Source of the DNA: Dehalococcoidia bacterium
GTDB lineage: Bacteria > Chloroflexota > Dehalococcoidia > Lucifugimonadales > UBA2962
Assembly: GCA_965219325.1 (NCBI GenBank)
Contig: OZ244723.1
Location: 2,090,158 to 2,154,157 of the forward strand
DNA length: 64,000 nucleotides
Direction: 5' to 3'
Within the stretch, counting starts at the first letter, position 1; every line of letters begins with the position of its first letter. The notes below the pieces were generated by a model. That model was not told the DNA's origin. It ran no database searches and saw only the letters and a program-made list of their open reading frames with translations. This document shows, piece after piece, positions 8,051-28,437 of this stretch. The position numbers were made by a program, and so were the translations under genes.

Positions 8051-9210
8051 GTCCGAAAAAGCTCGTATACACTCATCCGCGCTCAGAGCGCGTCTACCTG
8101 GTTGGGGTCTCCGTTCGCGGCTCCAGAGAACCGCTGTCTCTGGATGACTCCATGGCGGAACTGGCGGAGCTCACACGGAGTGCGGGTGGACGGGTAGTCG
8201 GATCCATGACACAGCGCGTGCCCAAGCCGACCCAGCACTATCTGGGTCATGGCAAGTTGGACATGCTGCGTGAGGTTGTTAGGGAACAGGACGTAGATTC
8301 GATCGTTTGCGACGATGAGCTGACGCCGACCCAACAGCGCAACCTAGAGCGGGCTCTGGGCGAGGTCAAGGTCATCGACCGCACCGCACTCATACTGGAC
8401 GTGTTTGCAGCTCGCGCTCAGACGAGAGAGGGACGGCTGCAGGTGGAATTGGCCCAACACGAGTACTTGCTTCCCAGGCTGGCCGGCCAATGGACGCATC
8501 TGGAGCGTCTGGGCGGTGGAATAGGCACTCGTGGCCCGGGGGAAACGCAGATCGAAACGGACCGCAGGCTCATCAGGGGACGCATTCAGAAGCTCAGGAG
8601 AGAGCTCGATTCCGTCAGCACTCATCGAAGCCTGTACAGGTCCCGGCGCCAGCAACGCGGCATGGACATCGTGGGGATGGTGGGTTACACGAACGCCGGC
8701 AAGAGTACGCTCTTGAACGCTCTCACCGGTGCGGGGGTGCCGGCCGAAGACAAGCTGTTTATGACCCTTGACCCGGTCACGCGCCAACTCAGGTTGCGAG
8801 ACGGGCATATGGCGTTGCTCACCGACACCGTAGGTTTCATACAAAAGCTGCCGCCCTCGCTAGTGGCCGCCTTCAGGTCTACACTCGAGGAGATAGGAGA
8901 ATCTTCACTGGTACTCCACGTCGTCGACGTAACGCATCCGAATGCAGCGCAGCACGTCGACGTTGTCAACTCCGTGCTAGACGGCCTCGGCGCCGGCGAC
9001 AAGCCGCGCGTTCTGGTGCTGAACAAGGTCGACCTGATCGGTCCCGTCGAGGATTTCTCCCACCTATCCGCACTGGCCCCAGCGCGCGTCCCCGCCGATT
9101 CCAACACCCCAGTCGTGCTCGTCTCGGCACTTCAACGTATCGGGCTAGACGATTTGCTGTCCACCATAGGGGAGAGCCTCTCGGATCGAAAACCGGCCGC
9201 CGTAGGCTGA
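8047..9210 (+). CDS. hflX: GTPase HflX
   Basis: [52 protein letters not shown]. Confidence 0.96.
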
Positions 9211-13279: not shown

Positions 13280-13774
13280 ATGCCGGTACTGGAGCGTATT
13301 CGCCGTAACCATGCTCTTGAACACGCGACCCTGGCGGTGCTCGCCAGCAGTGGAGTTAAGGGACTGCTTGCAGGCTATTCAACTAGTGGCGGATTTTGGT
13401 TGCTGGCCCCTGCCTCCGCCTCGACTGTCGAAGCCGCAGCCAATACAGCACTTGAGCGTCTCTCTTTGGGAGAGAGCCAGCTGGCCATCTCGGCTAGCTG
13501 TGGTACCAACCTCGCAGTCGCCTCCCTCCTTGCCAGCGCTGTGATCCGTTTGGCCAAGGCTAGACGTGGTGGTGGACGAACTGGTTGGCCACTCAAGGCA
13601 GTCCTGGTAGTTGGAGCTTTGGCATTGGCCAGGCCACTAGGTACCGCCATCCAACGCAAGCTCACGACCCTTTCTATTGTGGAAGGTATGAGGGTGTCCA
13701 GAGTCAGGACCCTCCAAATCGGCCAGTTCCACTTGCACCGCATCTTCACCGAGCAGCGCCTCGACCCACGTTGA
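13280..13774 (+). CDS. DUF6391-like membrane protein
   Basis: RIRRNHALEHAT and CGTNL motifs followed by hydrophobic helices, recalled from Chloroflexota proteins. Confidence 0.7.
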   Translation: MPVLERIRRNHALEHATLAVLASSGVKGLLAGYSTSGGFWLLAPASASTVEAAANTALERLSLGESQLAISASCGTNLAVASLLASAVIRLAKARRGGGRTGWPLKAVLVVGALALARPLGTAIQRKLTTLSIVEGMRVSRVRTLQIGQFHLHRIFTEQRLDPR

Positions 13775-13908: not shown

Positions 13909-13985
13909 GCCCCTGTAGCTCAGATGGATAGAGCGGCTGCCTTCTAAGCAGCGGGTCGCGGGTTCGAGTCCTGCCAGGGGTGCCA
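13909..13985 (+). tRNA. tRNA-Arg(TCT)
   Basis: Full cloverleaf: GCCCCTG/CAGGGGT acceptor, GCTGC-CTTCTAA-GCAGC anticodon arm, GGTTCGAGTCC T-arm, encoded CCA. Confidence 0.97.
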
Positions 13986-14030
13986 CTATAGACTGGTAGA
14001 TGACCTCCCTGCCCAGTCAGAAATACCTTC

Positions 14031-14049
14031 TAGTCAACGAATAGTCAAC
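14031..14049 (+). repeat. TAGTCAAC direct repeat pair (11-bp period), possible integrase arm-type sites
   Basis: TAGTCAAC-GAA-TAGTCAAC about 45 bp downstream of the tRNA. Confidence 0.4.
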
Positions 14050-14075
14050 AGAGAGCGGATCATAGGAGGCAATGG

Positions 14076-14363
14076 GTGCCACGCGTAAAAGTCTTTAGGA
14101 TCAAAGGATTCAACGTGGCTAGGGATTCCACGAAGAGGTTTGAGGTCGTCTTCCAAATTGGGCACGAAGACCGCGAGATCCGTGTCTTGGGGACTTGCAT
14201 TTACCCCGTCGGACAGTTTGACCACTCGCCGCCTTCAAACCACGATGCGGCTGAGCGAATCTGGGGGATGTTAGTAGCAGACCTTAAGGATCTTGCGCCA
14301 CAGCTTGCAGAGGTTGAAGTCGATTGGAAACCATCGCAGTCTCCAGTCGACCACTACGGCTAG
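14076..14363 (+). CDS. Hypothetical protein (island)
   Basis: GGAGG RBS upstream, protein-like composition; no family recognised. Confidence 0.5.
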   Translation: MPRVKVFRIKGFNVARDSTKRFEVVFQIGHEDREIRVLGTCIYPVGQFDHSPPSNHDAAERIWGMLVADLKDLAPQLAEVEVDWKPSQSPVDHYG

Positions 14364-14438
14364 GATAGCTACCGGCCCACAGGTGATTCGAAAATCGAAC
14401 CCCCAGCCCTGCTTTAGAACCCAGGTTCAGGTTCGGCC

Positions 14439-14657
14439 TCACCCCGGCATTGCGACTCCGGCCCGTTCCCATGCCTCGCGTTCGTGGTCGAGCACCTCGA
14501 TAGTCGTCATTTGGGGATTGCTTCTGGCCACGGCCTCGGTAGACTCAATGACCGTGGGCGGCCTAGGGGGTGTGGCCGACCGACCGCAAATGAGGCACGA
14601 CGGCGGTTCGTGGGCGGTCCAGACGTCGCAGCCGCACCGCTGACAGCTACGCGGCAT
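14439..14657 (-). CDS. Small putative zinc-finger protein
   Basis: CQRC...CLIC (CxxC-x13-CxxC). Confidence 0.4.
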   Translation of the reverse strand: MPRSCQRCGCDVWTAHEPPSCLICGRSATPPRPPTVIESTEAVARSNPQMTTIEVLDHEREAWERAGVAMPG

Positions 14658-14749
14658 CAGCCACCACACCGGGCCTCGTCACGGCCTCAGGCCTTCCTTG
14701 ACACGGCTCAAATCGAAGTCCTAAATTTGAACGAGCCGAAAGGCTGAGG

Positions 14750-14778
14750 AGGACGGTCACGTGGCCGTCCCTTTTTTT
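14750..14778 (+). terminator. Intrinsic terminator-like hairpin
   Basis: GGACGGTCAC/GTGGCCGTCC stem followed by T7. Confidence 0.6.
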
Positions 14779-14799
14779 GCCATTTAGCAGGAGGCATGA

Positions 14800-15123
14800 T
14801 TGATGCGACCTGAATTGCGTAAGGAAGTCCTCCGCATCGCGAAAGCGTTGGGCAAGGGTGAATGGCAGGCGGCACATCTCCGACCTGGCAGGTCAATGCT
14901 GGAAATCGAGGCAATTGAACACTTGAAATCGAGTGGCTTGATAACGGCTGAAGGCAAGCGTCCCCCTTTCTTGACCGACAAGGGCGACGAGTTCTTGCAG
15001 GAATCCAACGCCTCATGGTTGTACCGGTTCATTAAGAATTGGTCTGCTTGGATCATCCCAATCGTGGCTGCTGTTATCTCTGGTGCAACGGGGGCGGCAA
15101 TTACCTTCTTCTTGACTTGTTAG
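14800..15123 (+). CDS. Hypothetical protein with C-terminal transmembrane helix
   Basis: AGGAGG RBS; C-terminal WIIPIVAAVISGATGAAITFFL. Confidence 0.55.
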   Translation: MMRPELRKEVLRIAKALGKGEWQAAHLRPGRSMLEIEAIEHLKSSGLITAEGKRPPFLTDKGDEFLQESNASWLYRFIKNWSAWIIPIVAAVISGATGAAITFFLTC

Positions 15124-15139
15124 GCTAGCCGCTGGCGGC

Positions 15140-15790
15140 TTAGCCATCACTCGCCATTAGGCCTGACGTTGCCAGCGCCTGATCGACCTGCACGCCAGCC
15201 GCCACAAGGTTCTTGAAGGCGGTTGCTCGACCGACCAGATCGTGAGCGTACAAGCCCGAGAACCCGAGTTCGACATCCGCTTCGAGCTTGACCATCAACT
15301 CGTGCTGTAGCAGCGCGGCCAGCGGCTGGACCGTCATCGTGAGATAGCGCCGGAAGGCCTCGCGCTGGGCGGTCCCGTCGGAATCGTCGAAGAGCGCCGG
15401 CGGTGTTCCGCAGGCGGCCAGCACGGCGTTAAATGAGTCCGTTCGTATCGTACGCATCGCCACCGGTGGATTCGGACCGAGCCGGGAGGCAATCCAAACC
15501 CGTTGTGGTGCCGAGGCTCGACCTTCGCCCCATCCGGCGTTGGCTGTCTCGATCAGCAGGGCCTTGCCACGGGCGGCCGCTATGTCTTTCTTGAGGTCTT
15601 TGAGCGGGTCGTCCTCGTCAGCCGTCACCACCATCTTGGGGAACGGCCAGCAGGTTCGCCAGCGGTCCTTTAGCCTCATCGGCTAGTGACCGCTCGACCT
15701 CGGATTGGAGCCGCGCCGTCGTGTGGGCCCAGCTCAACGGCCCGGTGCCGACGTAGCGTTGGCCAGGCGTCGATCCCCACCGCACGAATA
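15140..15790 (-). pseudogene. Phage portal-like gene remnant, frameshifted near 15620 and 5'-truncated by the MITE
   Basis: Upstream frame YVGTGPLSWAH...GPLANLLAVPQDGGDG joins DEDDPLKDLKKDI...VLAACGTPPALF...TVQPLAALLQHELMVKL, resembling portal GxSP and C-terminal motifs. Confidence 0.5.
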
Positions 15791-15791
15791 C

Positions 15792-15860
15792 TGACCTGCC
15801 CCCCTTTGCCGGTCCAGCTCACTAACAATACGGCTGGACCAGAATTTTGGGGGCAGGTCA
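15792..15860. mobile_element. 69-bp IS3-derived miniature element (MITE)
   Basis: TGACCTGCCCCC...GGGGGCAGGTCA terminal IRs; left half resembles the left end and right half the right end of the IS3 at 20636-21926. Confidence 0.75.
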
Positions 15861-17473
15861 TGTTGTTGTTCAGGGAAAATGTCCGTAGCTAACTGTTCAG
15901 CGAAATTGTCATTCCATGCAAGGAGTGACATTGAGCCAGCAGGCACAGACGAGACTGAAGGTACTGAACAGCGTGCTGGTCGGCCAATTGCCGGTTGGCC
16001 AGGCGGCCGAGGTACTGGGGATCAGCGAACGCCACGTCAGGCGCATCCTGGCGGCCTACCGGGAGGAAGGAGCCGCCGCGCTGGTCCACGGGAATCGAGG
16101 CCGTAGACCTGCCAACGCCACAACCGAGGCGGCGATTGCCGAGGTGATGGAGTTGGCGGCGAGTCGCTATTCGGGTACGAACCACACGCACCTTTCCGAG
16201 TTGCTCATGGAGCGTGAGGGTATATTCCTGAGCCGCTCGACGGTGAGGCGGATCGCCCTGAGCGCCGGAATTGAGAGCCCCCGCCGCCGCCGTCCACCCA
16301 AACACCGCGTAAGGCGTCAGCGTATGCCCCAGGAAGGGATGCTGGTGCAGGTAGACGGCAGCCACCATCGGTGGCTGGAGGATCGTGGCCCCCGCTTTGC
16401 GCTGCTATTGGCCGTTGACGATGCGACCGGCACGGTGCCCTATGCATTGTTCAGGCCGGAAGAGGACGCGATGGGATACCTGCTGTTGATCGAGGGGATG
16501 ATCGAGCGCCGAGGGGTACCCCTTGCGCTCTACAGCGATCGTCACGCTGTCTTCAAAAACCCTGCACCGCCTCGGCAGAAGCTGCCCGGACCGACGCAGT
16601 TCGCCCGGGCCATGCAGCGGTTGGGCATAAGACAGATCTTCGCCCGGTCGCCACAGGCCAAGGGGCGTGTCGAGCGTGTGGCCGGGACATTCCAGGACAG
16701 ACTGGTCACCGAGCTGCGACTGGCGAAGGTCGAGACCATGGAACATGCCAACGAGGTCCTGCACCGATACCTGCCGAGGTTCGACGAGCAGTTCGGTGTC
16801 CCGGCGGCGCAGTCGGAGGTGGCCTACCGCAAACCTCCGTCAGCGGCCGCTGTCGAGCAGGCTCTGTGTTTCAGGTTCCACCGCAAGGTGGCAAGGGACA
16901 ACACGGTCAGGCACCGATGGCGCACCCTGCAGCTGCTGCCCGGCATGGAGCGGACCAGCTACGCCGGAGTTCAGGTGGAAGTCCTTGAGCGTCCCGATGG
17001 TCGACTGCTGGTTGAATACCAGGGGCACCTGATCGAGGCACAGGAGGCGCCTCCACGTCCGGAGTTTCTACGTGTCCTGGGGAATCGCACCACCCCCGAC
17101 GGCCGTGTCAACGGCTCCAGCCATGGTCACCAGGAACTGGCATGCCTGGAGAAGACCGATGTAGACAGTGAACAGGCAGCCAGCCCGCGGAGAAAACGCA
17201 AGCGTGCAGCTCCAGGATCGAGGAAGCCAACCCCGCGCCAGAAGGCTCTGTGGGAGGCGGTTCAGGAGGCCAGGGCACGCGGCCTGTCGCTGCGTGCGAT
17301 CGCCAGGGAGCTGGGGATCCACAGGGAAACCGCCCGCAGGTACGCACTGACCGAGAGCCCGCCCATGTACACACGGGTCAAGCCCGCCACAGCCCTATCC
17401 GATACCATCAACAACCACGGCGATGGACAATTTCGCTGAACAGTTGACCGGACATTTTCCCTGAACAACGACA
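15861..17473 (+). mobile_element. IS1202-family (ISNCY) insertion sequence
   Basis: TGT...ACA ends; IRs TGT(T/C)GTTGTTCAGGGAAAATGTCC with a second subterminal copy TGTTCAGCGAAATTGTC; AGGTCA at 15855-15860 and 17475-17480. Confidence 0.88.
15916..17439 (+). CDS. ISNCY/IS1202-family DDE transposase with C-terminal HTH
   Basis: LVHGNRGR, QVDGSHHRW, AVDDATG, LYSDRH, ARSPQAKGRVER, FQDRL; C-terminal GLSLRAIARELGIHRETARRY. Confidence 0.93.
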   Translation: MQGVTLSQQAQTRLKVLNSVLVGQLPVGQAAEVLGISERHVRRILAAYREEGAAALVHGNRGRRPANATTEAAIAEVMELAASRYSGTNHTHLSELLMEREGIFLSRSTVRRIALSAGIESPRRRRPPKHRVRRQRMPQEGMLVQVDGSHHRWLEDRGPRFALLLAVDDATGTVPYALFRPEEDAMGYLLLIEGMIERRGVPLALYSDRHAVFKNPAPPRQKLPGPTQFARAMQRLGIRQIFARSPQAKGRVERVAGTFQDRLVTELRLAKVETMEHANEVLHRYLPRFDEQFGVPAAQSEVAYRKPPSAAAVEQALCFRFHRKVARDNTVRHRWRTLQLLPGMERTSYAGVQVEVLERPDGRLLVEYQGHLIEAQEAPPRPEFLRVLGNRTTPDGRVNGSSHGHQELACLEKTDVDSEQAASPRRKRKRAAPGSRKPTPRQKALWEAVQEARARGLSLRAIARELGIHRETARRYALTESPPMYTRVKPATALSDTINNHGDGQFR

Positions 17474-17810
17474 TAGGTCAATTCACTGTTCGCTCCCCCA
17501 CATGGCGGGCGTTCATGCACTCCTAAGGCCCCGGCACAAGACTCCAGTGCGAACGGCCCGCCGTCTGCGAGCTTGGTTTAGGGTTCCCCACGTGTCCCTG
17601 TGACTCGACCAATAGCACAGGATAACTTTACGGGCTCGGTATTCCACCACGAGTCCCACGGGCCTAACCCTCTCAAGCATGCCACGGTGAGACACCAGCC
17701 TCCTCCAACCAGATGTTGCGCAGATTTCCTCGGTCAACATCGCAGCTGTTCCGCTTGATGTCCTGACCGCATCTGCCGCAGTGATAGGCTGATTCCCGAT
17801 CAATCTGGAC

Positions 17811-20171
17811 ATGCGCAAGTACCTCTTCCACTACGCACAGACACATTCTCCATTCACAATGTGCGGCATCCGGAGAACGCATCCGGGCCGCCTGAAGTGG
17901 CGCGGGCGGGACATTTCGCCGGATATCCTCGAACTCGGAACTTTACCTCCACCTAACGGCGAACTCTGTCCCGACTGTGCCTTCGACTACGCCCGTAGTC
18001 GGCACCAACCGCGCCGACCTCCGGTCAGACCTTCCAACAAGCCAGGCTCGGCCAAGTCAGGCTCAGGTAAGACGATTGCAGCAATGCTCGCCCTAGTGGC
18101 ATTGATCATAGCTGTGGTCTCGGTCTTCGCCGTGTATAACAACCGGAAAGGGATGGATGGCCAACGGGAAAACGCGGTTGTCCTGGCAGCAACGTCAACG
18201 TCCATACCCCGTGCGACGATTGTCCCACCGACAACCGCTTCCCCGGCCGACAGTTCAGAATCAGTCCCATCTTCGCCCGACTCGGCCACACCACCGCCGA
18301 CACCCTCACCTCTTTCGAATGCGACGCCGACTCCAACACCCACACCGACCCAGCCTGCAGACCTCAGGCACCTGGAAGAAAAGCTCTACATGCTCGAACT
18401 AGTCAACGCCGCCCGTGTACGAGCGGGCGTTGAACCGGTGGCGCTGGGCGATAACGCCGCCGCCCAACTACATGCAGAGGCAGCCTTGGCAAACTGTTTT
18501 TCCTCTCACTGGGGCATCGACGGCCTCAAGCCCTACATGCGCTACAGCCTTGCTGGCGGGTACCAGTCCAACGCAGAGAACATCTCCGGCCTCGGCTATT
18601 GCATTAAGTCCTCCGATGGCTACCGTAGCAACGGCACAATAGAGTGGGAAATTCGCGAGGCCATGAATGGCCTCATGGACAGTCCCGGCCACCGCGACAA
18701 CATCCTGGATAGGTGGCACAGGAAGATCAACATCGGCCTTGCCTGGGACAGCTACAACTTCTCGCTGGTCCAGCATTTCGAAGGAGACTACGTCGAATAC
18801 GACCGCCTGCCGGAGATCCAAGACGGTGTGCTGCGCCTGTCAGGAACAGCCAAGAACGGAGTGACCTTCGAGAGCGATGCGGATTTGGGAGTGCAGATCT
18901 ACTTTGATCCGCCCCCGCATGCCCTCACTCGGGGGCAGGTCTCAAGGACCTACTGCTATGACCAGGGAAGGCTCATCGGGGCCCTGAGACCGCCCCTGTC
19001 CGGCGATTGGTACTACGACGACCACAGCCTCGACCACTCCCACCAGCCATGTCCCGACCCCTATGACGTTTCCCCAGAGGCCTCTGCCCCTCTATCTCAC
19101 GACGAAGCGCTCAAGTATTGGGAGGAGGCATATGAGGCCAGTCTGACAACTCCAATCGAGCAACTGAGGGTGCCATGGATTACGGCCTCGGAAATGAGAG
19201 TCAGGGATCAGTCCTTCTCAGTGACAGCCGATCTGGCTAGCCTGCTCACCGATCACGGCGATGGGGTCTACACGGTCAGCATATGGGGCAGCATGGATGG
19301 AGAGGACGTCGTCATCTCCCAATACTCGATATTCCATAAAAATGTCGCGCCTGACAGTTACAGCAGCACCGACCAGGCTGGCTTTGCCGTTGTCAGCGCC
19401 GGCTGGAGTCACACCTGCGGGGTGAAGGCGAACGGATCAGTCGAATGCTGGGGAAGAAATCTTGGAGGTGAGTCGACACCGCCGGACGGTTCATTCATCT
19501 CAGTAAGCGCCGGGGCGACGCACAGTTGCGGGCTAAAGACGGACGGCTCCGTCGAATGCTGGGGGTGGGACCAACTTGGCCAGTCCACTCCTCCCAATGA
19601 CTCATTCATCTCAGTAAGCGCCGGCTTCGAGCACAACTGTGGAGTGAAGGACGATGGCGCGGTGGCATGCTGGGGAAGTGACAACGAAGGCCAGTCCACG
19701 CCGCCGGACGGTTCGTTCATCTCCGTCAGCGCCGGAGGCAATCACACCTGCGGAGTACAGACGAACGGCTCAATCGCATGCTGGGGGAGAGACGCCGATG
19801 GTGAGTCCACGCCGCCAAGCGGCACATTCGTCTCAGTCAGCGCTGGTTCGAGTCACACTTGCGGCGTAAAGACAGACGGCTCCGTCGAATGCACTAAGGA
19901 TGGGCAACGCAAGTCCAGCCCGCCCGGTGGCCCTTTTGCCTCTGTCAGCGCCGGAGTGAATCACACATGTGGCGTCAAAGAGGGTGGCACGGTGGCATGC
20001 TGGGGAAGTCACGCCCATGGTGAGTCGACACCGCCGGACGGTTCATTCATCTCAGTAAGCGCTGGCCAGGGTTTTAGCTGCGGGATAAAGACGGACGAGT
20101 CCGTCGAATGCTGGGGAAGCGACTACCATGGCCAGTCCACCCCCCCCAAGAGGGCAACGTCCAATCCATGA
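17811..20171 (+). CDS. Membrane-anchored protein: TM helix, Pro/Thr linker, CAP/SCP domain, seven RCC1-like repeats
   Basis: LELVNAAR...SHWG...ENI...MDSPGHRDNIL (CAP); VSAGxxHTCGxKxDGSVxCWG repeats. Confidence 0.85.
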   Translation: MRKYLFHYAQTHSPFTMCGIRRTHPGRLKWRGRDISPDILELGTLPPPNGELCPDCAFDYARSRHQPRRPPVRPSNKPGSAKSGSGKTIAAMLALVALIIAVVSVFAVYNNRKGMDGQRENAVVLAATSTSIPRATIVPPTTASPADSSESVPSSPDSATPPPTPSPLSNATPTPTPTPTQPADLRHLEEKLYMLELVNAARVRAGVEPVALGDNAAAQLHAEAALANCFSSHWGIDGLKPYMRYSLAGGYQSNAENISGLGYCIKSSDGYRSNGTIEWEIREAMNGLMDSPGHRDNILDRWHRKINIGLAWDSYNFSLVQHFEGDYVEYDRLPEIQDGVLRLSGTAKNGVTFESDADLGVQIYFDPPPHALTRGQVSRTYCYDQGRLIGALRPPLSGDWYYDDHSLDHSHQPCPDPYDVSPEASAPLSHDEALKYWEEAYEASLTTPIEQLRVPWITASEMRVRDQSFSVTADLASLLTDHGDGVYTVSIWGSMDGEDVVISQYSIFHKNVAPDSYSSTDQAGFAVVSAGWSHTCGVKANGSVECWGRNLGGESTPPDGSFISVSAGATHSCGLKTDGSVECWGWDQLGQSTPPNDSFISVSAGFEHNCGVKDDGAVACWGSDNEGQSTPPDGSFISVSAGGNHTCGVQTNGSIACWGRDADGESTPPSGTFVSVSAGSSHTCGVKTDGSVECTKDGQRKSSPPGGPFASVSAGVNHTCGVKEGGTVACWGSHAHGESTPPDGSFISVSAGQGFSCGIKTDESVECWGSDYHGQSTPPKRATSNP
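19392..20150 (+). repeat. Seven tandem RCC1-like units of about 111 bp
   Basis: Unit starts at 19392, 19503, 19614, 19725, 19836, 19944, 20055. Confidence 0.9.
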
Positions 20172-20268
20172 GCGTTCCCCGCTGGCAGAGAGTGTCACAG
20201 TTGCATTGCAAGGATGAAATGCCCGGCCCCTCAGAAATTTCGCCCCTCAGGGAAGAAGTTTGCGGGAT

Positions 20269-20635
20269 TCAAACGAAGACGTATAGGGGTTCGGAGGACT
20301 CAGCGCCTTTCCAAGCCCGTCCTAGGGGCCCTACTCTCGTGAGTCTTGCTAGGTGCGAAACCCTAAGGGGAACATCAACCCCTGCTCTGCCGATCTCCCT
20401 TTGTGCCAAGCGGAGGAATTGGCCCGCCGCAAGCTCCTCATCGAATACGACGAAGACCGAAGGCACGGCGCCATGATCGTCCATTGGCCGCTTCGACGAG
20501 TAGTACCGAAGGTACGGCGCAAGCCTCCTCGCCATTGTCACTGGCCTCACCGCCCGGCGCTCCCATTCCAGGAAGAACGGAAACGTCTCCCCTCCCCTCC
20601 GCAGGATGCCGAACGCGTCCGGATGTACGGAATGC
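20269..20635 (-). pseudogene. C-terminal remnant of a replication-relaxation family gene, cut by IS3
   Basis: Frame open up to the IS end: HPDAFGILRRGGETFPFFLEWERRAVRPVTMARRLAPYLRYY; no N-terminal part beyond the IS. Confidence 0.6.
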
Positions 20636-20731
20636 TGACCTGCCCCCCAATGCCGGTTGATCTGCTCCCCGAATTCTGACCCAGTCAGAATGTTAGTTTT
20701 GCGGGAAGTGAAAGGACAGGAGGATTGGTCG

Positions 20732-20998
20732 ATGAAGAGGTCCCGGTATACGCCAGAGCAGATAGCCTTCGCGCTGCGGCAGGCCGAGAACGGCCTGCCG
20801 GTAGTGGAGGTCTGTAGAAAGATGGGGATCGCCGAGCAGACCTTCTACCGGTGGAAGAAGAGGTACGTCGGCATGGGAGTGGCTGAGGTGAGGCGTCTTA
20901 AGGTCCTGGAGGAGGAGAACCGCAAGCTCAAGCAGCTGGTGGCTGACCTGAGCCTGGACAAGCACATGCTCCAGGACGTGCTGAGAAAAAAGCCCTAG
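20732..20998 (+). CDS. IS3 transposase OrfA
   Basis: MKRSRYTPEQI...GIAEQTFYRWKK...LEEENRKLKQLVADLSLDK. Confidence 0.92.
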   Translation: MKRSRYTPEQIAFALRQAENGLPVVEVCRKMGIAEQTFYRWKKRYVGMGVAEVRRLKVLEEENRKLKQLVADLSLDKHMLQDVLRKKP

Positions 20999-21009
20999 AG
21001 CCTGCTCAG

Positions 21010-21828
21010 ATGAGAGACCACGCCGAGTATCTACAGGTGGCCTACGGTTCGAGCGAGCGCCGCGCGTGCCAGGTGCTGACGCTTGGACGCTCGACCTGCA
21101 GGTACGAGAGCGTGGCCGCTGAGCAGGCTGCCCTGAGGATGAGGATCAGGGATCTTGCGGCATCGCGGGTTAGCTATGGATACAGGCGCATCCACGTGCT
21201 GCTGAGGAGGGAAGGATGGAAGGTGAATCACAAGAAGGTCTACAGGCTCTACCGCATGGAGGGGCTGCGGATACGGCCGAAGCGGCCCAGGCGACACGTA
21301 TCCGGCCAGAGGAGGGAGAGCAGGGTCGTGGCGTCGAGATCCGACGAGCGGTGGGCCATGGATTTCATGAGCGACGAGCTGTTCGACGGCAGGCGGATCC
21401 GGATCTTGACGATAGTGGATCACTTCAGCCGAGAGAGTCTGGCTATCGTGGTGGACGGAAGCCTCGGAGGACGTCGAGTGGTGGAGACTTTGGCCATGCT
21501 GGCGCTGGAAGGAAGGAAGCCTCGGACCATAGCCATGGACAACGGCCCCGAATTCACCTCCAAAGCACTGGACCAGTGGGCATACCTGAACGGTGTGGAG
21601 TTGGACTTCAGCCGGCCGGGCAAGCCCACTGACAACGCGATCGTAGAGGCCTTCAACGGCAGGCTCCGTGCCGAATGTCTGAACGAGAACTGGTTCCTGT
21701 CGTTGGACGACGCCAAGGAGAAGATAGAAGATTGGCGCAGGTACTACAACGGTGAGCGTCCCCACGGCGCCCTGGGAAACCTCACCCCGGAGACATTCGC
21801 CTCGAAGACACCGGCGGTTGTTGGATAA
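21010..21828 (+). CDS. IS3 transposase OrfB (integrase core)
   Basis: YGYRRI, WAMDFMSD, DNGPEFTS, SRPGKPTDNAIVEAFNGRLRAECLN, YNGERPH. Confidence 0.95.
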   Translation: MRDHAEYLQVAYGSSERRACQVLTLGRSTCRYESVAAEQAALRMRIRDLAASRVSYGYRRIHVLLRREGWKVNHKKVYRLYRMEGLRIRPKRPRRHVSGQRRESRVVASRSDERWAMDFMSDELFDGRRIRILTIVDHFSRESLAIVVDGSLGGRRVVETLAMLALEGRKPRTIAMDNGPEFTSKALDQWAYLNGVELDFSRPGKPTDNAIVEAFNGRLRAECLNENWFLSLDDAKEKIEDWRRYYNGERPHGALGNLTPETFASKTPAVVG

Positions 21829-21940
21829 GTCGCAAAACTAACATTCCACCTGGTACAGAAAATGGGGCAAGCTCACGGTCCAGCTTAGTAACATTCCAGC
21901 CGGGTCAGATTTTGGGGCGCAGGTCAGGTTTCCTTACAGG

Positions 21941-21980
21941 TCGATTACCAGTTCGAAAGTTCGCAATACGGTCTCGCCGA
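21941..21980 (+). repeat. 40-bp direct repeat, copy 1
   Basis: TCGATTACCAGTTCGAAAGTTCGCAATACGGTCTCGCCGA, identical to 26588-26627; next bases AGGTAC vs GGGTAC. Confidence 0.95.
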
Positions 21981-22205
21981 AGGTACGCTGCTTCCCGCTC
22001 GCTCGGCAAGGGCGGTGGGCCCAGCGTTCGTCGCGCCCGACGGCTGTCGCCCTTGGCCGTATCGGCGCCGAATCGTGGTCGGTGCGCATTCGCGCGGGGC
22101 CGTGTGGCGCGAGGGCACGGGCTGAGGCTCCACGTTCGCGGATACGGTCCTGGCAAGCCCCCCCTTGAGTGCGACCCCGGTCCGTTCGTTAAGATAGCGG
22201 GGTAC

Positions 22206-22268
22206 GCCCCCGTAGCTCAGCGGATAGAGCACCGGTTTCCTAAACCGGGTGTCGCGCCGGGGGCGCCA
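22206..22268 (+). pseudogene. tRNA-Arg(CCT) lacking the inner T-arm (63 nt, about 13 nt missing)
   Basis: Intact acceptor GCCCCCG/CGGGGGC, D-arm, CCGGT-TTCCTAA-ACCGG anticodon arm and CCA; GTGTC-GC|GC where the T-stem/loop should be. Confidence 0.85.
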
Positions 22269-22443
22269 CCTCACCTCGCGCCACGGACAGTGCGCTGCCC
22301 GCCTCCGCCCGCAGGGTCTATGGCCTCATCCTTTCAGCTGCGCTCCCGCCCCGCCTGCGGCACCTGAATCCGCGCCACCGGCTGCCCGGGCGCCCGCCGG
22401 TCCCCTGGAGAATGTCCCGGGCCGCGGGATTTCCGCCCTGCCC

Positions 22444-22680
22444 TCAGTCCGGCCTCGCCCCGTTGCCTCCTGGCCTCGCCTTCCAGGAGATCTCGATGGT
22501 GACCTTGCCTCCTCTGGAGGGCTCCTTGCCCTTGACGTCGAGCTCTACTGACCTGGTCGGCCTGGTGGAAAAACCCTTGCCGAACCTGATGCTCCCGGTT
22601 GCTAGGCCCAGCGCTATGGCGCTGATGCTCTCGGCGGACCTCTCGGGACTCAGTGTCCTCTTGAGCTTGGCCGTCGCCAT
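22444..22680 (-). CDS. Amphi-Trp domain protein
   Basis: 78 aa; ...ALGLATGSIRF...VELDVKGK...KVTIEISW matches the amphi-Trp pattern. Confidence 0.65.
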   Translation of the reverse strand: MATAKLKRTLSPERSAESISAIALGLATGSIRFGKGFSTRPTRSVELDVKGKEPSRGGKVTIEISWKARPGGNGARPD

Positions 22681-22689
22681 AGATGCGGC

Positions 22690-23462
22690 CTAGGCCAGGG
22701 CCGGAACACCGACGAGTGCCCCGCGCTCTCCCTCGGCGGCCGGGGCGGGGCGGCTGCGGTCGGCCGCCATGCGCTGCTTGACGATCGATTTGTGGGCCTT
22801 GCTGATCCGCACCAGGGAGTCGATCCGGGGGGCCGTCTCCGTCAGGGTCGTGCGCTCCGCAAGACACCGCTTGAGCCCCTGCTACGTCAGCTCATCCAGC
22901 GCGAGAACGGTGCTCTGCACCCCTGTCTGGGGCCAGACATGCGCGTCCGAACCGCCCACAACGGGCAGGTCGAACTCCGCCGCAAGTCGCCGTATCTTCG
23001 GCTCGACCCGGGAGAGCGCCACATCCTTGCCGTTTACCTCGAGGGCGTCAAAGCGCCCCAGGTGCCTGCGGCCCACCTCGACGGTGCTCTTGCCCTGCTG
23101 GGTTGGGTGGGCGGCGATGATCACCAGGCCGGCCGCCCTGGGCGGAAGGATCGATCGAACAGGCCCATCTGCTCGATGTCGCCGATCAGCACGATGTCCA
23201 CCCTCTCTGCAACGGTCAGCTCCGCGCCGGTAAGGACGTTAAAGCCCTCCCCCACGGAAAAGTGGCCGCCGCGGTAGGTGTACCTGCAGAGTAGCTCGCC
23301 GAGTATTGCACAGTAGTCTCCCGTGTGAAGGTGCTCGGTAAGTGCAAAGCCCGAAAGGCCCATCCTCCTCGCCCGTTCCACGATGGACTCGAAATGCTGG
23401 AGGCTGAACTCTTCGGCCTTGCAAACCTTGGCGTGTACGTGAAGGTCCGCCCTGATCGTCAT
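22690..23462 (-). pseudogene. PHP-family phosphoesterase with a frameshift/deletion at about 23139 and an in-frame TAG at 22882-22884
   Basis: DLHVH, ALTEH, LTGAEL in the first frame; LVIIAAHP, DALEVNGKD, GGSDAH in the second; after the TAG the frame continues QGLKRCLAERT...RISKAHKSIVK to TAG at 22690. Confidence 0.8.
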
Positions 23463-23520
23463 CGAGTCGCGTCTTCTCCTTGGCTCAGTCGGCCTATCCC
23501 CTCACGTTAGCAGCGGCAGA

Positions 23521-23546
23521 TTAACAATGCATGACAGAATTGTTAA
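23521..23546. promoter_or_regulatory. TTAACAAT-N10-ATTGTTAA palindrome with a CTGTCAT Pho-box-like core on the minus strand
   Basis: AT-rich island upstream of the PHP/amphi-Trp genes. Confidence 0.4.
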
Positions 23547-23805
23547 ACGAAGTCTAATTGGAAATGGTTTAGCCGGCTTCCAAGAAATCGGCTGACCGCG
23601 GTTCAATGGCCGTTCCCATGTTGCCACGGACGTGTTGGGCATTGTCACCTCCCTTTGGCCGGGGTGCGGCGGGCGCCCGGGTGCGGGGGGCAGGTCGGGA
23701 GGGGGCTGTCAGGGGCGCGGTATCAGGCTCGAGGCGGCCAACCAGGCCGCCCCTAAAGGATCGGTTAACGGCAGCCGGCTCCCGGCGGACGCTCCGCTCG
23801 TCGGG

Positions 23806-24990
23806 TCAGGGGACGAACAGTTCGCTCTCGGCCAGCGCCTCTTCCTCGCTGTTGCCGCCAGCTATGAGCACCCTCCCGTCGGATAGCACCGCGGCGGCGT
23901 GGCGGTACCTGGCCTGTACCATGTCAGGCGCCGCTGTCCAGGACATCGTGGCCGGATCGAAGATCTCGGCCGAGTTCTTAACGCCCAAGCCGCCGGTGAC
24001 CAGCACCCGCCCGTCTGACAGCAGGATGGCAACGTGCTCTGCGCGTGGCTGCCGGGTCTCGCCGGCCCGGGTCCACGAGGAAGTCGCCGGATCGAAGATC
24101 TCGGCCAACGTCTTTTTGCCCGTGCCGCCGACCACCAGGACACGGCCGTCCTTGAGCACGGTCGCCGTGTGGAGCACCCTGCCCTCGGCCATGTTACCCG
24201 CCTCGGCCCAGCTGTCGCTCGACGGATCGTACACCTCCGCAGAGTCCGTATACGGTCCGTCCAGCTTCCCGCCCCCCGTGACGAGGGCCCTCCCGTCCAG
24301 CAGGGTTGTGGCCGTGTGCAGAGTGCGCTCGGTGCTCATCGGGGCCGCCGGCGTCCATTGGCCGGTCGCCGGGTCGTAAATCTCTACCGAGTCGAGCCTC
24401 TTCAGCCGCTTGGTATCGACGCCCCCCGTAAGGACGACGCGCCCGTCGGGCAGGGCGGTCCATGCCGCCTCCGCCCGCCCGGTGTTGATCGAGCCGGTTG
24501 AGTTCCAGGTACCCGAGTCAGGGTCCCAGATCTCGGACGTGCGTATGGCCTCGAATCCGGTCAGTTCCGTGCCGCCCGCAGCCAGCACTGAACCGCCAGG
24601 CAGGACGGCCAGCAGGTGCTTTCGGCGGCCCTCGGCCAAGTCCCCGGTGGAGGTCCACTCGCCCGTCGCCGGGTCGTATATCTCCGCGGAGGTGTGTACG
24701 AGCCCTCGGTGGCTGCCCTTTCCCCAGCCTCCGGCGGTCAGCACCCTGCCGTCGGGAAGTGTGACCATGGCGTGGTACTGGCGGTCGTTGCCCATGGCAT
24801 CGGTTCCGACGAACTCCCCCTCCCCTCCGCTCGGTGCGGGCGTGTCTTCGGCCGGCGGTGCCGCGGCGGGCTCGGTGCCAGGCCCTGCCGAGCAGGCGGC
24901 GAGCGGGATCATACCCGCTGCAAGGACCAGGAAAAGAACCAGTGCGGTCCGCCACCCGGGAGTGCGGTTCTGCGGAGCAAGCGGTCTCAC
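23806..24990 (-). CDS. Kelch-repeat beta-propeller lipoprotein
   Basis: LAAC lipobox; six R.xH.A..L.DGRVLV.GG...AEIYDPATG.W repeats. Confidence 0.88.
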   Translation of the reverse strand: MRPLAPQNRTPGWRTALVLFLVLAAGMIPLAACSAGPGTEPAAAPPAEDTPAPSGGEGEFVGTDAMGNDRQYHAMVTLPDGRVLTAGGWGKGSHRGLVHTSAEIYDPATGEWTSTGDLAEGRRKHLLAVLPGGSVLAAGGTELTGFEAIRTSEIWDPDSGTWNSTGSINTGRAEAAWTALPDGRVVLTGGVDTKRLKRLDSVEIYDPATGQWTPAAPMSTERTLHTATTLLDGRALVTGGGKLDGPYTDSAEVYDPSSDSWAEAGNMAEGRVLHTATVLKDGRVLVVGGTGKKTLAEIFDPATSSWTRAGETRQPRAEHVAILLSDGRVLVTGGLGVKNSAEIFDPATMSWTAAPDMVQARYRHAAAVLSDGRVLIAGGNSEEEALAESELFVP

Positions 24991-25068
24991 GACGGGGATA
25001 GTCTACGCGAGTGCCGAGCCGCGCCCGGGGATCGGCCGTTCGCTGCCCGGCGTTCGCGGGAAGGACCG

Positions 25069-26007
25069 ATGTCCGAGTACGTGGCCTATCTGAACGGGGA
25101 ATGGGTCGACTCCGACGAGCTCAGGATCGACCGCAGGGACCGCGGTTTTCGCACTGGCGACGTCGTGTTCGACACGGCGGGCACGTTCGACGGGGTCATA
25201 TTCGACACGCGCCTGCACGCAGAGAGGCTGATCCGGTCCCTAAAGTACGCCCGCATCGACTCTGGGCTGACCACCGACGAGTGGGAGGCGGTCATGCAGG
25301 AGGCGGTAGACAGGAACCAGCACCTCTTGCCCTCGGCCGGGGACTTTTACATCTACCCGTTTATCACCAGGGGCATGGGCCATCCGGCACCGGCGTCGGG
25401 CCCTCCCACCGTCGCCTGCGAGGCCTATCCCTTGTACTTTGGACGGTGGGCCGAGTGGTTCGACCAAGGCGTGAAGGGTGCCATACCCAAGGCGCGCAGC
25501 CTGTCGAGTGATCAGATCGACGCCAAGATCAAGCACCAGAGCCGGATGAACATGAACCTGGCCGAGATGGAGGCCTGGGATATCGACGAGGGCGCCTACC
25601 CGGTCATGCTCGACCTCGCCGGCAATCTCACCGAGGGCACGATCAACTCGGTGTTCCTGGTCTCTGGCGGGGTCCTGAAGTGCCCGACCGACACCGTCAT
25701 ACTCCAGAGCCTGTCGCGCTGGACGGTCCGGGACCTTGCGGGACAGCTGGAAATACCGGTGGTCGAGGAGGACCTTCAGCCCTACGACCTGTACACGTCT
25801 GACGAGGCCTTCCTGGCCTTTACCGGCCCATGTGTGCTGCCCTTGACCACCGTGGACCGCCGCGAGATCGGAGACAGCAGGCCCGGCCCCATCACAAGGC
25901 AGCTGCTCGCCGCATGGTCCGAGCGCGCCGGCGTGGATATCGTGGGCCAGGCCCAGAGACACGGCCAGCTGGCCAGTGCCGGGCATCCCGATGCCCCGCA
26001 GGCCTAG
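25069..26007 (+). CDS. PLP-dependent aminotransferase class IV (IlvE/PabC/DAT-like)
   Basis: YLNGEWV, DRGF..GDVVFDT, H..RL..S, AKIK (PLP Lys), LTEG...VFLV, DEAFL, PGPIT; the 463-aa ORF in the track is over-extended upstream. Confidence 0.88.
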   Translation: MSEYVAYLNGEWVDSDELRIDRRDRGFRTGDVVFDTAGTFDGVIFDTRLHAERLIRSLKYARIDSGLTTDEWEAVMQEAVDRNQHLLPSAGDFYIYPFITRGMGHPAPASGPPTVACEAYPLYFGRWAEWFDQGVKGAIPKARSLSSDQIDAKIKHQSRMNMNLAEMEAWDIDEGAYPVMLDLAGNLTEGTINSVFLVSGGVLKCPTDTVILQSLSRWTVRDLAGQLEIPVVEEDLQPYDLYTSDEAFLAFTGPCVLPLTTVDRREIGDSRPGPITRQLLAAWSERAGVDIVGQAQRHGQLASAGHPDAPQA

Positions 26008-26245
26008 ATTATTCGCTCCCCCGCCCGTGCGCATGCCGCGGCCAGGGGAGCAAGATCGGGCCCGGGCCAATTGCAGGTGAACTCGGGGAACTGAGAGGGT
26101 GGGGCGCCCCAACTGGCACTATGGTGATCACCCGCCAGCGTGCACCTGCGTGGCTTGCACGCAAGCCACCGCCAGGCGGGGGTAGTGGCGCTGTTGCGGC
26201 GGCTGCTCGCCCAACTCCGTATTCGCTAGGCGGCAGGAGTCGCCC

Positions 26246-26446
26246 CTAGTACTTGGAGGACTCTACCTCCGGCAACTTGCCGGTCACCAGGAAGATGGCG
26301 CGCTCCGCGACGTTGGTGGCCCTGTCGGCGATCCTCTCCAGGTCGTGGGAGACCCACAGCAGGTAAGTGGCGCGTTTGACAGTGCCAGGATCCTCGATCA
26401 TGAACATCAACAGCTCGCGGTAGACTTGCTCGTAGATCCGGTCCAC
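26246..26446 (-). pseudogene. phoU: C-terminal fragment of PhoU
   Basis: VDRIYEQVYRELL.FMIEDP...ATYLLWVSHDLERIADRATNVAERAIFLVTG; upstream sequence unrelated. Confidence 0.85.
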
Positions 26447-26587
26447 CAAAGGGGATTCGAACCGAATTTCAAAGCTGGTGCCTGTGATCGCGGGCACCAA
26501 GACAAGCCTGCTTGGGCGACGCAAGCGGAGTCGGGTCGTTTGACCGCGATTAACGCAACTTGTACTGTCGACTAGATCCCGACCATC

Positions 26588-26627
26588 TCGATTACCAGTT
26601 CGAAAGTTCGCAATACGGTCTCGCCGA
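26588..26627 (+). repeat. 40-bp direct repeat, copy 2
   Basis: Identical to 21941-21980. Confidence 0.95.
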
Positions 26628-26683
26628 GGGTACCAGCGTGTACCGTATGAAGAAACCGGTGCTGTCGAGGGATTCAGGCGCGC

Positions 26684-27463
26684 ATGGAAGGGAAAGCATT
26701 GTCAGGATGGTTCGCAGGAAAAGTCGCACTTGTAACTGGCGGCGCATCCGGCATCGGTAGGGCGACGGCCCTGGCCTTCGCTCGTGAAGGGGCCAAGACG
26801 GTCATCTCAGACCTCGATGCCGACGGTGGCCACGAGACTGTCCATATGATCAAGGACTCCGGAGGAGAAGCTACATTCGTCACAGTGGACGTAACGATGT
26901 CAGACCAGGTCGAGGCCCTAGTCAACCGGGCGGTCCGTACCTATGGACAACTCGATTGCGCGTTCAATAATGCAGGTCTTGAGCGGGAACTCTCCAACCC
27001 CGACGTGCGATTCGACGAGGAGACGTTCCAATCTGTGATCGACGCTAACCTCAAGGGTGTCTGGCTCTGCATGAAGCACGAGATCGCACAGATGCTGGAA
27101 CAGGGCTCCGGCACGATCGTCAACACCTCGTCGGTCGCGGGCCTGGTTGGTATACCCAACCAACCGATCTACGTTGCCAGCAAGCACGCGGTATCCGGAC
27201 TGACCAAGTCGGCCGCCGTCGAGTACGCCGGCAGGGGTATCCGCATCAACGCTGTATGTCCGGGTCTCGTCGACACGCCGCTGTTGGAACGTATCTATGC
27301 GAGCAACCCAGGGCTGAAATCGGAAGCCGACAGCTGGCAACCGATTGGGCGCACTGCCCAGCCCGAGGAGATCGCTGAGGCCGTCATCTGGCTCTGCTCG
27401 GATATGGCCTCGTTCGTGGTCGGTCATATGATGACGATCGATGGGGGACTGGTCGTTCGGTAG
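26684..27463 (+). CDS. Short-chain dehydrogenase/reductase
   Basis: TGGASGIG, NNAG, YVASKH, INAVCPG, DGG. Confidence 0.93.
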   Translation: MEGKALSGWFAGKVALVTGGASGIGRATALAFAREGAKTVISDLDADGGHETVHMIKDSGGEATFVTVDVTMSDQVEALVNRAVRTYGQLDCAFNNAGLERELSNPDVRFDEETFQSVIDANLKGVWLCMKHEIAQMLEQGSGTIVNTSSVAGLVGIPNQPIYVASKHAVSGLTKSAAVEYAGRGIRINAVCPGLVDTPLLERIYASNPGLKSEADSWQPIGRTAQPEEIAEAVIWLCSDMASFVVGHMMTIDGGLVVR

Positions 27464-28437
27464 GGCCCATGCCTTGGGGCGCGCCAGACCGCCTGGGCTG
27501 GCCAGCAAACGCCTAACGATGCTCCGCCGTCCGCGGACGGCTGGACAGGAGTCCAGTCGGCCCAGCAGATGCCAATGACGCAGACGGTGAATCACATGTC
27601 GACTATTGTGCCGAATGTTCACGGTACATGAGGCTCAGTCGCCTGCGAATGTCGGTAAAGACCTCTCCTGTCTAACGCGACAGGATCGTGTCGCTCTGAT
27701 CTGCACCGCTCGACTGTACCGCGAACTCCGCGTCGAACTAGAAGTCCAAATGCGGGACCGACATTGGTGGGCGTGCGCTGGTCGGACATCGATGCCGAGC
27801 TCTTCGTGGCGGGAGTCGGAGTTATTGGGAGTTAAGGACCCGGGGATGTCCATTTGTAGGCGCGGATTTCGAGTCGTGGATGTTCAACCACGCGCTAGAT
27901 CCGAACATGTACGGGACACGTTTCGAGATTAAGGCGAGTCAACGGGCGCCAAGTGCTGTCCGCGATCAAGAGAAGAGTGGGGCAGGATGGGGCATCCGAC
28001 GGCAGTGCGGAACTCCTCACCGCAAATGAGAAAACCAGTTGACCTCGCTCGGTTGCCTATGTCGAAGCGAAAGACTTTGAGACGATCAAAAAGGAGTTTC
28101 AGAATTCAATCAATTTGGCTGTTCGGTAGACCAGTATAGGTTCAGATTGTTCCGGACATTACAGCCCTCGCCGAACCATCAATTGTGCCTGCGCTACCCA
28201 ACATGCTAAAGGTTGTAGCGGACGACGCCGCAGGTTCCAAAGGTCATAGCGACACCCCAGTTCAAAGGTTCTGCCCAAAGTCAGGTTAGGGGGGCCACAC
28301 TGATTTCTTGCGGGGGCGTAGACGGCGGCTTCGCAGAGTTCTGTCCCCCGCTCTGCTAGACTGTTGCGCTCAAATCGACGTGCCCTAGCATGCTGGGGCC
28401 TGCTATGTGAATATCAGTTGTCACGGGAGACTGTGCC

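Follow-up and report, generated by a model that had tools for sequence, protein, structure and literature searches.

Cis-mobilizable elements (CIMEs) and the tandem accretion of islands at the 3' ends of tRNA genes have been described, for example, for ICESt1-related elements of Streptococcus thermophilus (PMC5704250). In Dehalococcoides, islands lie in tandem at ssrA; some have no integration genes and were proposed to be cis-mobilizable, and their cargo is strain-specific (PMC3146451). The direct repeat of these islands is 20 bp of ssrA, and their serine-recombinase module is DsiB/DsiA (PMC3146451). We analysed a 64-kb stretch of the genome of a Dehalococcoidia bacterium (contig OZ244723.1, positions 2,090,158 to 2,154,157; here called the window) in which a tandem array runs from tRNA-Arg(TCT) through a degraded island, island A, and a 4,646-bp unit, element B, into the chromosome. 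B is probably a non-autonomous, CIME-like integrative islet in this tRNA array, moved in trans by a site-specific recombinase.

B resembles a CIME in keeping att-type ends while having no genes for integration or transfer, and in lying beside a decayed island at a tRNA 3' end. Direct repeats stand at the island boundaries, and mobilisation by a recombinase in trans or in cis is expected. It differs from a CIME in that its repeat does not duplicate the 3' end of the tRNA (a hand alignment shows only about 10 matches among the last 17 nucleotides), and in that its cargo is captured foreign chromosome, with only about 190 bp that are not chromosomal. The array also has no functional integrase-bearing partner, and B, in spreading through hosts that differ by 12-15%, has stayed more than 98% identical. 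Its behaviour is CIME-like, but two features of CIMEs are missing: the derivation from an integrative and conjugative or integrative mobilizable element, and a repeat that is the tRNA end. With the tRNA islands of tyrosine integrases it has integration at a tRNA 3' end in common, but neither a repeat of the tRNA end nor an integrase at one end. The ssrA islands come from the same bacterial class, and they too are tandem islands downstream of a small RNA gene and bounded by short direct repeats. Here, however, the target is tRNA-Arg(TCT), the 46-48-bp repeat is unrelated to the 3' end of the target, and there is no DsiB/CcrB-like serine recombinase module in the loci examined.

The unit was defined by mapping more than 12 independent contigs onto the window. 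Copies of B were traced through the 113-aa fragment of its PHP pseudogene, which clusters with near-identical variants, 13 in all, from many contigs. In the mapped contigs homology begins at 21982-21985 and ends at 26630 of the window, with three types of left neighbour and two types of right neighbour. In the window and in L001, which is 99.9% identical to it, B lies between island A, which ends in a 46-nt sequence (the 46-mer), and an SDR gene. In L008, L009 and L018-L021 (98.2-98.8%) the SDR gene is again on the right, and the left neighbour is the 3' end of tRNA-Arg(TCT), apart from L009, which begins inside B. L010 and L011 (99.1-99.6%) have the same ends at a second, unrelated locus: B follows a tRNA-like T-loop/acceptor remnant downstream of tRNA-Thr(CGT) and is followed by an HNH / SRAP / dnaE2 / imuB region. 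The same remnant precedes B in L013 and L015, which hold only its left end (99.4-99.7%), as the contigs end within B.

Table 1. Features of the array and its surroundings (positions in the window)
Feature	Position	Strand	Remarks
tRNA-Arg(TCT), start of island array	13909..13985	+	ARAGORN; intact; acceptor 3' strand ends ...CCAGGGGT at 13981
Island A, degraded, 8 kb	13982..21984	+	between tRNA and B; no integrase; ends in 46-mer copy 1
Direct-repeat motif TCAGAAAT..TAGTCAAC..TAGTCAACA	14016..14050	+	near tRNA-proximal end of island A
Phage-portal fragment	15140-15679		island A; Pfam, sub-threshold
HTH transposase-like gene, 507 aa	15916-17439		island A; Pfam
Protein with CAP domain and seven RCC1 repeats	17811-20171		island A; Pfam
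IS3-family element	20658..21875	+	inside island A; OrfA 20657-20998, OrfB 21010-21828; Pfam HTH_Tnp_1, rve/rve_3
46-mer copy 1, right terminus of island A	21941..21986	+	crossover with B at 21983-21985 (...GCCGAAGG-T/ACGC...)
Element B	21985..26630	+	non-autonomous mobile unit; ends mapped across contigs
Left 188 bp of B	21985..22172	+	no homology to native locus in L002; begins ACGCTGCTTCC
Defective tRNA-Arg(CCT)	22206..22265	+	Rfam 42.7 bits; T-arm lacks 13 nt; no ARAGORN call
Conserved 78-aa open reading frame	22444..22680	-	orthologue at L002 7543-7779
PHP-family phosphoesterase pseudogene	22882..23462	-	reading frames 23121-23462 (113 aa) and 22882-23124 (80 aa); Pfam
Kelch-repeat protein	23806..24990	-	lipoprotein-like N-terminus (LAAC); Pfam Kelch_6 2e-45; internal repeats
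Class IV aminotransferase (branched-chain/D-amino-acid type)	25066..26007	+	Pfam; closest homologues in Dehalococcoidia/SAR202
PhoU C-terminal fragment	26246..26447	-	Pfam (reading frame 26246-26524); homology to native locus ends at 26447
Non-chromosomal 140 bp between phoU' and 46-mer	26448..26587	+	no L002 homology; only in copies of B
46-mer copy 2, right terminus of B	26588..26633	+	crossover at 26630-26632 (...GCCGAGGG-T-ACCA...)
Right flank beginning ACCA	26632..26683	+	followed by region upstream of SDR gene
SDR-family oxidoreductase, first gene right of array	26684..27463	+	Pfam

An earlier note on this DNA had described a GC-richer cassette between two exact 40-bp repeats, without a recombinase gene. 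The repeat is as described: the two 46-mers match at 45 of 46 positions, the first 40 exactly, the sole mismatch being A at 21981 and G at 26628. There are exactly two copies in the window with up to 3 mismatches allowed, against 0 expected from 100 shuffles. The GC content between them is 66.6%, compared with 60.0% in the rest of the window (the visual figures given before were slightly high), and 500-bp windows range from 0.63 to 0.72 inside the block and from 0.57 to 0.61 in the flanks. The absence of a recombinase gene from the block also held, in Pfam searches of its open reading frames and in tblastn with an integrase. The unit is not, however, repeat to repeat. The 46-mer closes both A and B, and B therefore appears bounded by a 46-bp direct repeat of which it owns only the right-hand copy. 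Either order of arrival of A and B is compatible with the observed junctions.

The target is likewise not the 3' end of a protein gene, as had been thought, but the array at tRNA-Arg(TCT). Island A is absent from the L008, L018, L019 and L021 lineages, and where it is absent B abuts the tRNA: in L008 and L018-L021 the match to the window extends as far as 13981 and resumes at 21982, which places B against position 72/73 of the tRNA in all five contigs. The minus strand of the repeats does read GETVLRTFELVI, as reported. In copy 2 a stop lies 17 codons upstream of GETVLRTFELVI (by hand translation), and the sequence upstream of it differs between all contexts; the 46-mer therefore does not mark where a gene ends.

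The junctions define the crossover closely. On the left, B begins with ACGCTGC, preceded by ...GTTCGAGTCCTGCCAGGGGT of tRNA-Arg(TCT) in L008 (window position 13981 joined to 21985), by ...GTTCGAGTCCCCGTGAGTGG of the tRNA-like remnant, in the same register, in L010, L011, L013 and L015, and by ...CGCCGAAGGT of the 46-mer in the window. On the right, GCCGAGGG is followed by TACCAGCG in the window, by CACCAGCTTCC in L008 and by GAGCTGG in L010. The junction lies 20 nt past the start of GTTCGAGTCC in L008 and L010 alike. The ends of B are thus fixed to within 3 nt in three contexts, and the crossover is confined to at most 3 nt (G-N-A) at the last acceptor base pair and the discriminator. The attP-like junction of B would read ...GCCGAGGG-T-ACGCTGC..., and the attB of the L008 lineage ...CCAGGGG-C-ACCAGC.... 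Read as sequence, CAGGGG-C-ACCA would restore a perfect acceptor stem with the GCCCCTG of tRNA-Arg(TCT). The ACCA at the start of the right flank therefore looks like the displaced end of the target tRNA, its discriminator and CCA. Right of B the window holds no further att-like or tRNA-half remnants.

These junctions bear on the possibility that there is no dedicated recombinase and that B moves by RecA-type homologous recombination, either through the 46 bp of identity with the terminus of island A (a Campbell-type single crossover of a circle) or through the flanks. At the left junctions of the L008 and L010 types the 46-mer is missing and identity with the end of B is down to a few bases, yet their position agrees to the nucleotide, as does the register relative to the tRNA T-loop. 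Between the window and L007 or L008, 107 of 107 positions are identical up to 26630, at the end of the 46-mer, compared with 75% against L007 over the next 53 bp; the boundary lies exactly at that end and not at a variable point in the flank. The A/G mismatch of the two 46-mers also fits a crossover to its right, at the common core, assuming that the island A allele was A beforehand. On the other side, 46 bp of identity are long enough for inefficient RecA recombination, the geometry would be the same as with site-specific integration, mosaicism is evident at the locus (99.2-99.9% identity in the SDR segment where the left flanks are 85-86% identical), and the searches reported below found no recombinase. 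On balance we consider homologous recombination alone unlikely.

The identity of the copies shows that B has moved between hosts. On the left, the host flank of the window is 87-88% identical to those of the other lineages, and that of L021 is 85-86% identical to those of the L008 group, while B is 97.7-99.9% identical in all pairs, pseudogenes included, with no relation to host distance. Neutral DNA this conserved across diverged hosts was not inherited vertically, and the earlier suggestion of a foreign, horizontally mobile block is borne out. B does occupy the same tRNA-Arg(TCT)/SDR position in several related lineages, as old, vertically inherited chromosome would. But identity is 98-99.9% in its pseudogenes and intergenic DNA, compared with 85-91% in the housekeeping flanks, and B is also found at the unrelated tRNA-Thr / imuB-dnaE2 locus. 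Nor is the arrangement a product of assembly. Short common k-mers can create false joins in graph-based assemblers, and the 46-mer might have served as one. However, the same structure is present in assemblies of many samples, on more than 12 contigs of up to 174 kb, and the L008-type copies hold a single 46-mer, which makes a repeat-mediated misjoin impossible there. L001, an independent contig, has the whole arrangement apart from the IS3-family element. Vertical inheritance and a chimeric contig are both effectively refuted. The naming styles of the contigs (ctg..x_l, ptg..l, NODE_, k113_, scaffold_) are, we presume, those of different assemblers, which would suggest both long-read and short-read data. 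Many of the source samples are presumably sponge microbiomes, going by study codes and the names of metagenome-assembled genomes.

It is very unlikely that B is a non-autonomous transposon (DDE, HUH or Tn7-like) whose transposase is encoded elsewhere, with the adjoining insertion sequences (IS) as possible helpers. B has no terminal inverted repeats, and there is no target-site duplication at any of its junctions; its reconstructed end-to-end junction has no notable single-strand structure (z = +0.65). Some Tn7-like elements do target the 3' side of tRNA genes, and the IS3-family element and a solo sequence like an IS end lie within 100 bp of the left repeat. However, L001 has B unchanged without the IS3 element, and no IS lies beside B in L008 or L010. 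The features of an IS or composite transposon that B lacks are seen in its neighbour: the IS3 element has TG...CA ends, a target duplication of 3-4 bp (CGGT) and inverted repeats at 20667-20703 and 21831-21867. As it is missing from the 99.9%-identical L001, it is a separate recent insertion, unrelated to B. Both the IS3 element and the solo IS end were rejected as mobilisers of B. The solo sequence (21880-21925), which adjoins the IS3 element, resembles its right inverted repeat (CTTAGTAACATTCCAGCCGGGTCAGATTTTGGGG).

The cargo of B is a contiguous chromosomal segment, from tRNA-Arg(CCT) to the middle of phoU, of a related member of the Dehalococcoidia. L002, a 1.05-Mb contig from such a bacterium, has the order tRNA-Arg(CCG), tRNA-Arg(CCT), 78-aa reading frame, PHP, Kelch, aminotransferase, PhoU, pstB, pstA, pstC, phoR, phoB, with an intact PhoU of 221 aa, and looks like the native state. 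Nucleotide homology between the window and L002 is limited to 22173-26447, at 74-84% identity, and B is therefore a chromosomal fragment cut inside phoU with 188 bp added on the left and 140 bp and the 46-mer on the right. The aminotransferases are 90% identical at the amino acid level. This synteny supports the earlier idea of a chromosomal fragment from another taxon. We take the 140 bp to be a probable remnant of the island from which B derives. Another contig with an 85% homologue of the aminotransferase (L005) proved to be an unrelated, paralogue-rich locus.

Most of this cargo is decayed. The tRNA-Arg(CCT) has lost one CGTTCGAGTCGCG unit of 13 nt between GTCGCG direct repeats in 11 of the 11 copies examined (the intact homologue is at L002 7329-7404), and the PHP gene, a single intact gene of 274 aa in L002, is split in all copies examined. 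B was therefore already damaged when it began to spread. The aminotransferase is intact in the window and L001 only, and frameshifted or deleted in other copies. The Kelch gene, intact in 6 of 7 full-length comparisons, is the sole cargo gene intact in most copies. Its pooled differences (18 synonymous over 1165 sites, 20 nonsynonymous over 3250) give a ratio of about 0.4, from small numbers and comparisons that are not independent. The exact Kelch protein, in its 394-aa and 368-aa forms, had no match in the protein collection. The contents listed in the earlier note were recovered by Rfam and Pfam (defective tRNA-Arg(CCT), broken PHP gene, Kelch protein, aminotransferase and phoU tail) with one exception. 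The reading frame called amphi-Trp has no Pfam match at E<=0.01, and its L002 orthologue has only a sub-threshold match to Amphi-Trp (E 0.046; 14.2 bits against a cut-off of 27).

Right of about 25311-25324 the copies differ, with a distinct deletion or replacement in each host clade (L008, L018, L019 and L021; window equivalents 25311-26688). The 46-mer has been wholly lost from the copies in L019 and L021, which are probably immobilised.

The 46-mer is not particular to this cassette, as had been supposed. Its 24-nt core has matches in two GTDB genomes and none in JGI metagenomes or IMG/VR. One of the two, L007, has B in its L008-type form, and the other, L006, is on the same contig as L032 (VXPF01000125.1; 68% GC) and has only the 46-mer in common with the window. 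By tracing the antitoxin gene adjacent to the 46-mer we found a defence block in L028-L037 (for example L028 1-10700), on Dehalococcoidia contigs of 66-72% GC. Its order is a Type ISP restriction enzyme, a PIN toxin-antitoxin pair, CRISPR-Cas I-C (cas3 through cas2), a DUF433/DUF5615 toxin-antitoxin pair, 49 bp, and the 46-mer followed by CA. The block ends exactly at ...GCCGAGGGTACCA in 10 loci, and past ...GGGTACCA it gives way to at least five unrelated right flanks. As the 46-mer and CA close the block in 10 loci before unrelated flanks, the 46-mer is the conserved right terminus of an island family (TCGAYTACCAGTTCGAAAGTTCGCAATACRGTCTCGCCGARGG) and not part of any gene. The earlier view of the repeats as att-type sequences is supported. 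Mobile defence islands with CRISPR-Cas and restriction-modification systems are known, and this block, with at least five different neighbours, resembles them; it is a sister element and not the cassette of the window. No tandem array was found in L028 with TRF, a tool ill-suited to CRISPR arrays. Directly right of the 46-mer, L032 has a cobalamin riboswitch (8931-9113; Rfam 109.7 bits) upstream of btuC/cobO/btuF.

The left end of B fits into the same family. Its ACGCTGCTTCC resembles the trailers ACCAGCTTCC and ACCAACTTCC found right of other 46-mers, and the end-to-end junction of B, GGGTAC-GCT-GCTTCC, resembles the canonical junctions of 46-mer and trailer, GGGTACCA-GCTTCC. The joined ends of B therefore look like an ordinary attR of the family. 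The 46-mer is not the displaced 3' half of a tRNA or the end of an RNA gene: it aligns poorly with tRNA-Arg(TCT), has no Rfam match, and no T-arm could be fitted by hand. Nor is it a structured element on its own, having no significant fold (z = +0.63). An integron cassette can be set aside too, as the 46-mer has no attC-like structure, there is no integrase, and a multi-gene cargo of 4.6 kb would be atypical. In L010 the flank contains the 46-mer core again, inverted and at roughly 75% identity, and the 46-mer and flank together (L010rc 13476-13546) make up a palindrome, nearly perfect and about 70 nt long, with its centre at the junction (-21.5 kcal/mol, z = -4.6). This is what the site of a recombinase dimer would look like.

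No recombinase was found in B or island A by Pfam on all open reading frames or by tblastn with a P4-type integrase, and there are no Resolvase or Recombinase domains in the annotated loci. The 10-kb flanks of the B copies hold no integrase apart from that of L011 (12172-13347; Arm-DNA-bind_3 and Phage_integrase), a P4-type tyrosine integrase assigned to a separate island, which splits tRNA-Thr(CGT) in the anticodon loop. The tRNA is intact at the equivalent place in L010 (L010rc 8315-8389). The L011 enzyme was rejected as the recombinase of B, since its specificity is different and neither the window nor the other loci contain a homologue of it. The direct-repeat motif near the start of island A resembles the region 12-40 nt upstream of the L011 integrase start (local score 31, reached in 0 of 500 shuffles). 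The TAGTCAAC repeats could be arm-type sites of an integrase, and their likeness to the L011 region hints, weakly, at a tyrosine integrase with such sites.

Taken together, we think it likely that B integrates site-specifically at the 3' acceptor end of tRNA-type sequences with a recombinase from elsewhere, for which the 46-mer would be the binding arm beside the crossover. The donor would have been a member of the Dehalococcoidia of higher GC content, in which an island of the family lay next to a tRNA-Arg gene. Illegitimate joining of the middle of phoU to a site within that island, 140 bp from its right end, could then have produced a circle that held the attR of the island (46-mer and tRNA trailer) and 4.3 kb of adjacent chromosome, much like a specialised-transduction product. 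Such a circle would go on to recombine with tRNA-Arg-type sites, or with the 46-mer site of another island, in new hosts. We infer the type of recombinase, the circular intermediate and the origin by aberrant excision in this way. The aberrant excision of phage lambda at gal and bio gives comparable products, in which donor chromosome from beside an att site is fused to a piece from the end of the element and the recombination site is kept. B differs from these in that only about 190 bp of the parent element are left, and no phage genes or packaging signal were identified in it.

Several points weigh against integration by a recombinase supplied in trans. The attP and attB cores, as deduced, are barely alike (about GCC..GGG.AC), and the central base is different in each event. 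Truly independent insertion loci number only two. The region is a recombination mosaic, with an SDR segment about 99% identical where the left flanks are about 86% identical, and some of the occurrences of B at the same site may be the result of homologous recombination through the flanks rather than of independent integration. No recombinase is linked to the 46-mer among the loci examined, and the collections scanned contained no circular junction and no unoccupied tRNA-Arg(TCT)/SDR site. The earlier note had held that a multi-copy dispersed repeat with no empty-site allele would count against it; no true empty-site allele was found. The 28-mer at the 3' end of tRNA-Arg(TCT) had 0 matches in JGI metagenomes, and the SDR orthologues at 82-85% nucleotide identity gave no empty site, as they lie elsewhere. 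Finally, the 140 bp beside the 46-mer of B are unlike the DNA beside the 46-mer in island A or in the defence island, which leaves the origin by aberrant excision unconfirmed.

The surroundings of B have a history of their own. The SDR segment (26700-27600) is 99.2-99.9% identical among L008, L018, L019 and L021 and 90% identical to the window, while the left flanks of the same four are only 85-97% identical to one another. The SDR orthologues at 82-85% have a different neighbourhood, with homology limited to the coding sequence. This pattern suggests recombinational mosaicism or a further mobile segment right of B. A 681-bp stretch (27666-28346; 55.5% GC) is present in the window and L001, and about 15 nt stand in its place in the L008-type contigs. 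In island A, a 1.6-kb segment that holds the transposase-like gene (15861-17474; L001 399-2012) is inverted between the window and L001. It is edged by imperfect inverted repeats of about 45-50 bp, and represents either an invertible element or an IS that has turned around at its site. The Kelch protein of B and the CAP/RCC1 protein of island A place secreted or lipoprotein-type proteins with eukaryote-like repeats on adjoining islands. Repeats of these types have been proposed to act in the contact between symbionts and hosts; we offer such a link here as a hypothesis.

It is possible, though we think it doubtful, that the 46-48-bp terminus marks an undescribed family of site-specific islands in the Dehalococcoidia sampled, whose recombinase would be of a new type or have its gene at a distance from the att end. 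Such a family would move defence islands, and hitchhikers like B, across species, and its long arm, unrelated to the tRNA, would recognise the tRNA-Arg-type acceptor end. What the sequences resolve is a recombinase-less islet sweeping through bacteria whose housekeeping DNA differs by 12-15%. As its cargo is mostly dead genes, its spread seems to hinge on keeping the att arm and not on useful cargo. The 48-bp terminus provides a marker for an island family in uncultured Dehalococcoidia, one member of which has a complete CRISPR-Cas I-C system along with a Type ISP restriction enzyme and two toxin-antitoxin pairs, and it can be used to trace the recombinase and gene flow.

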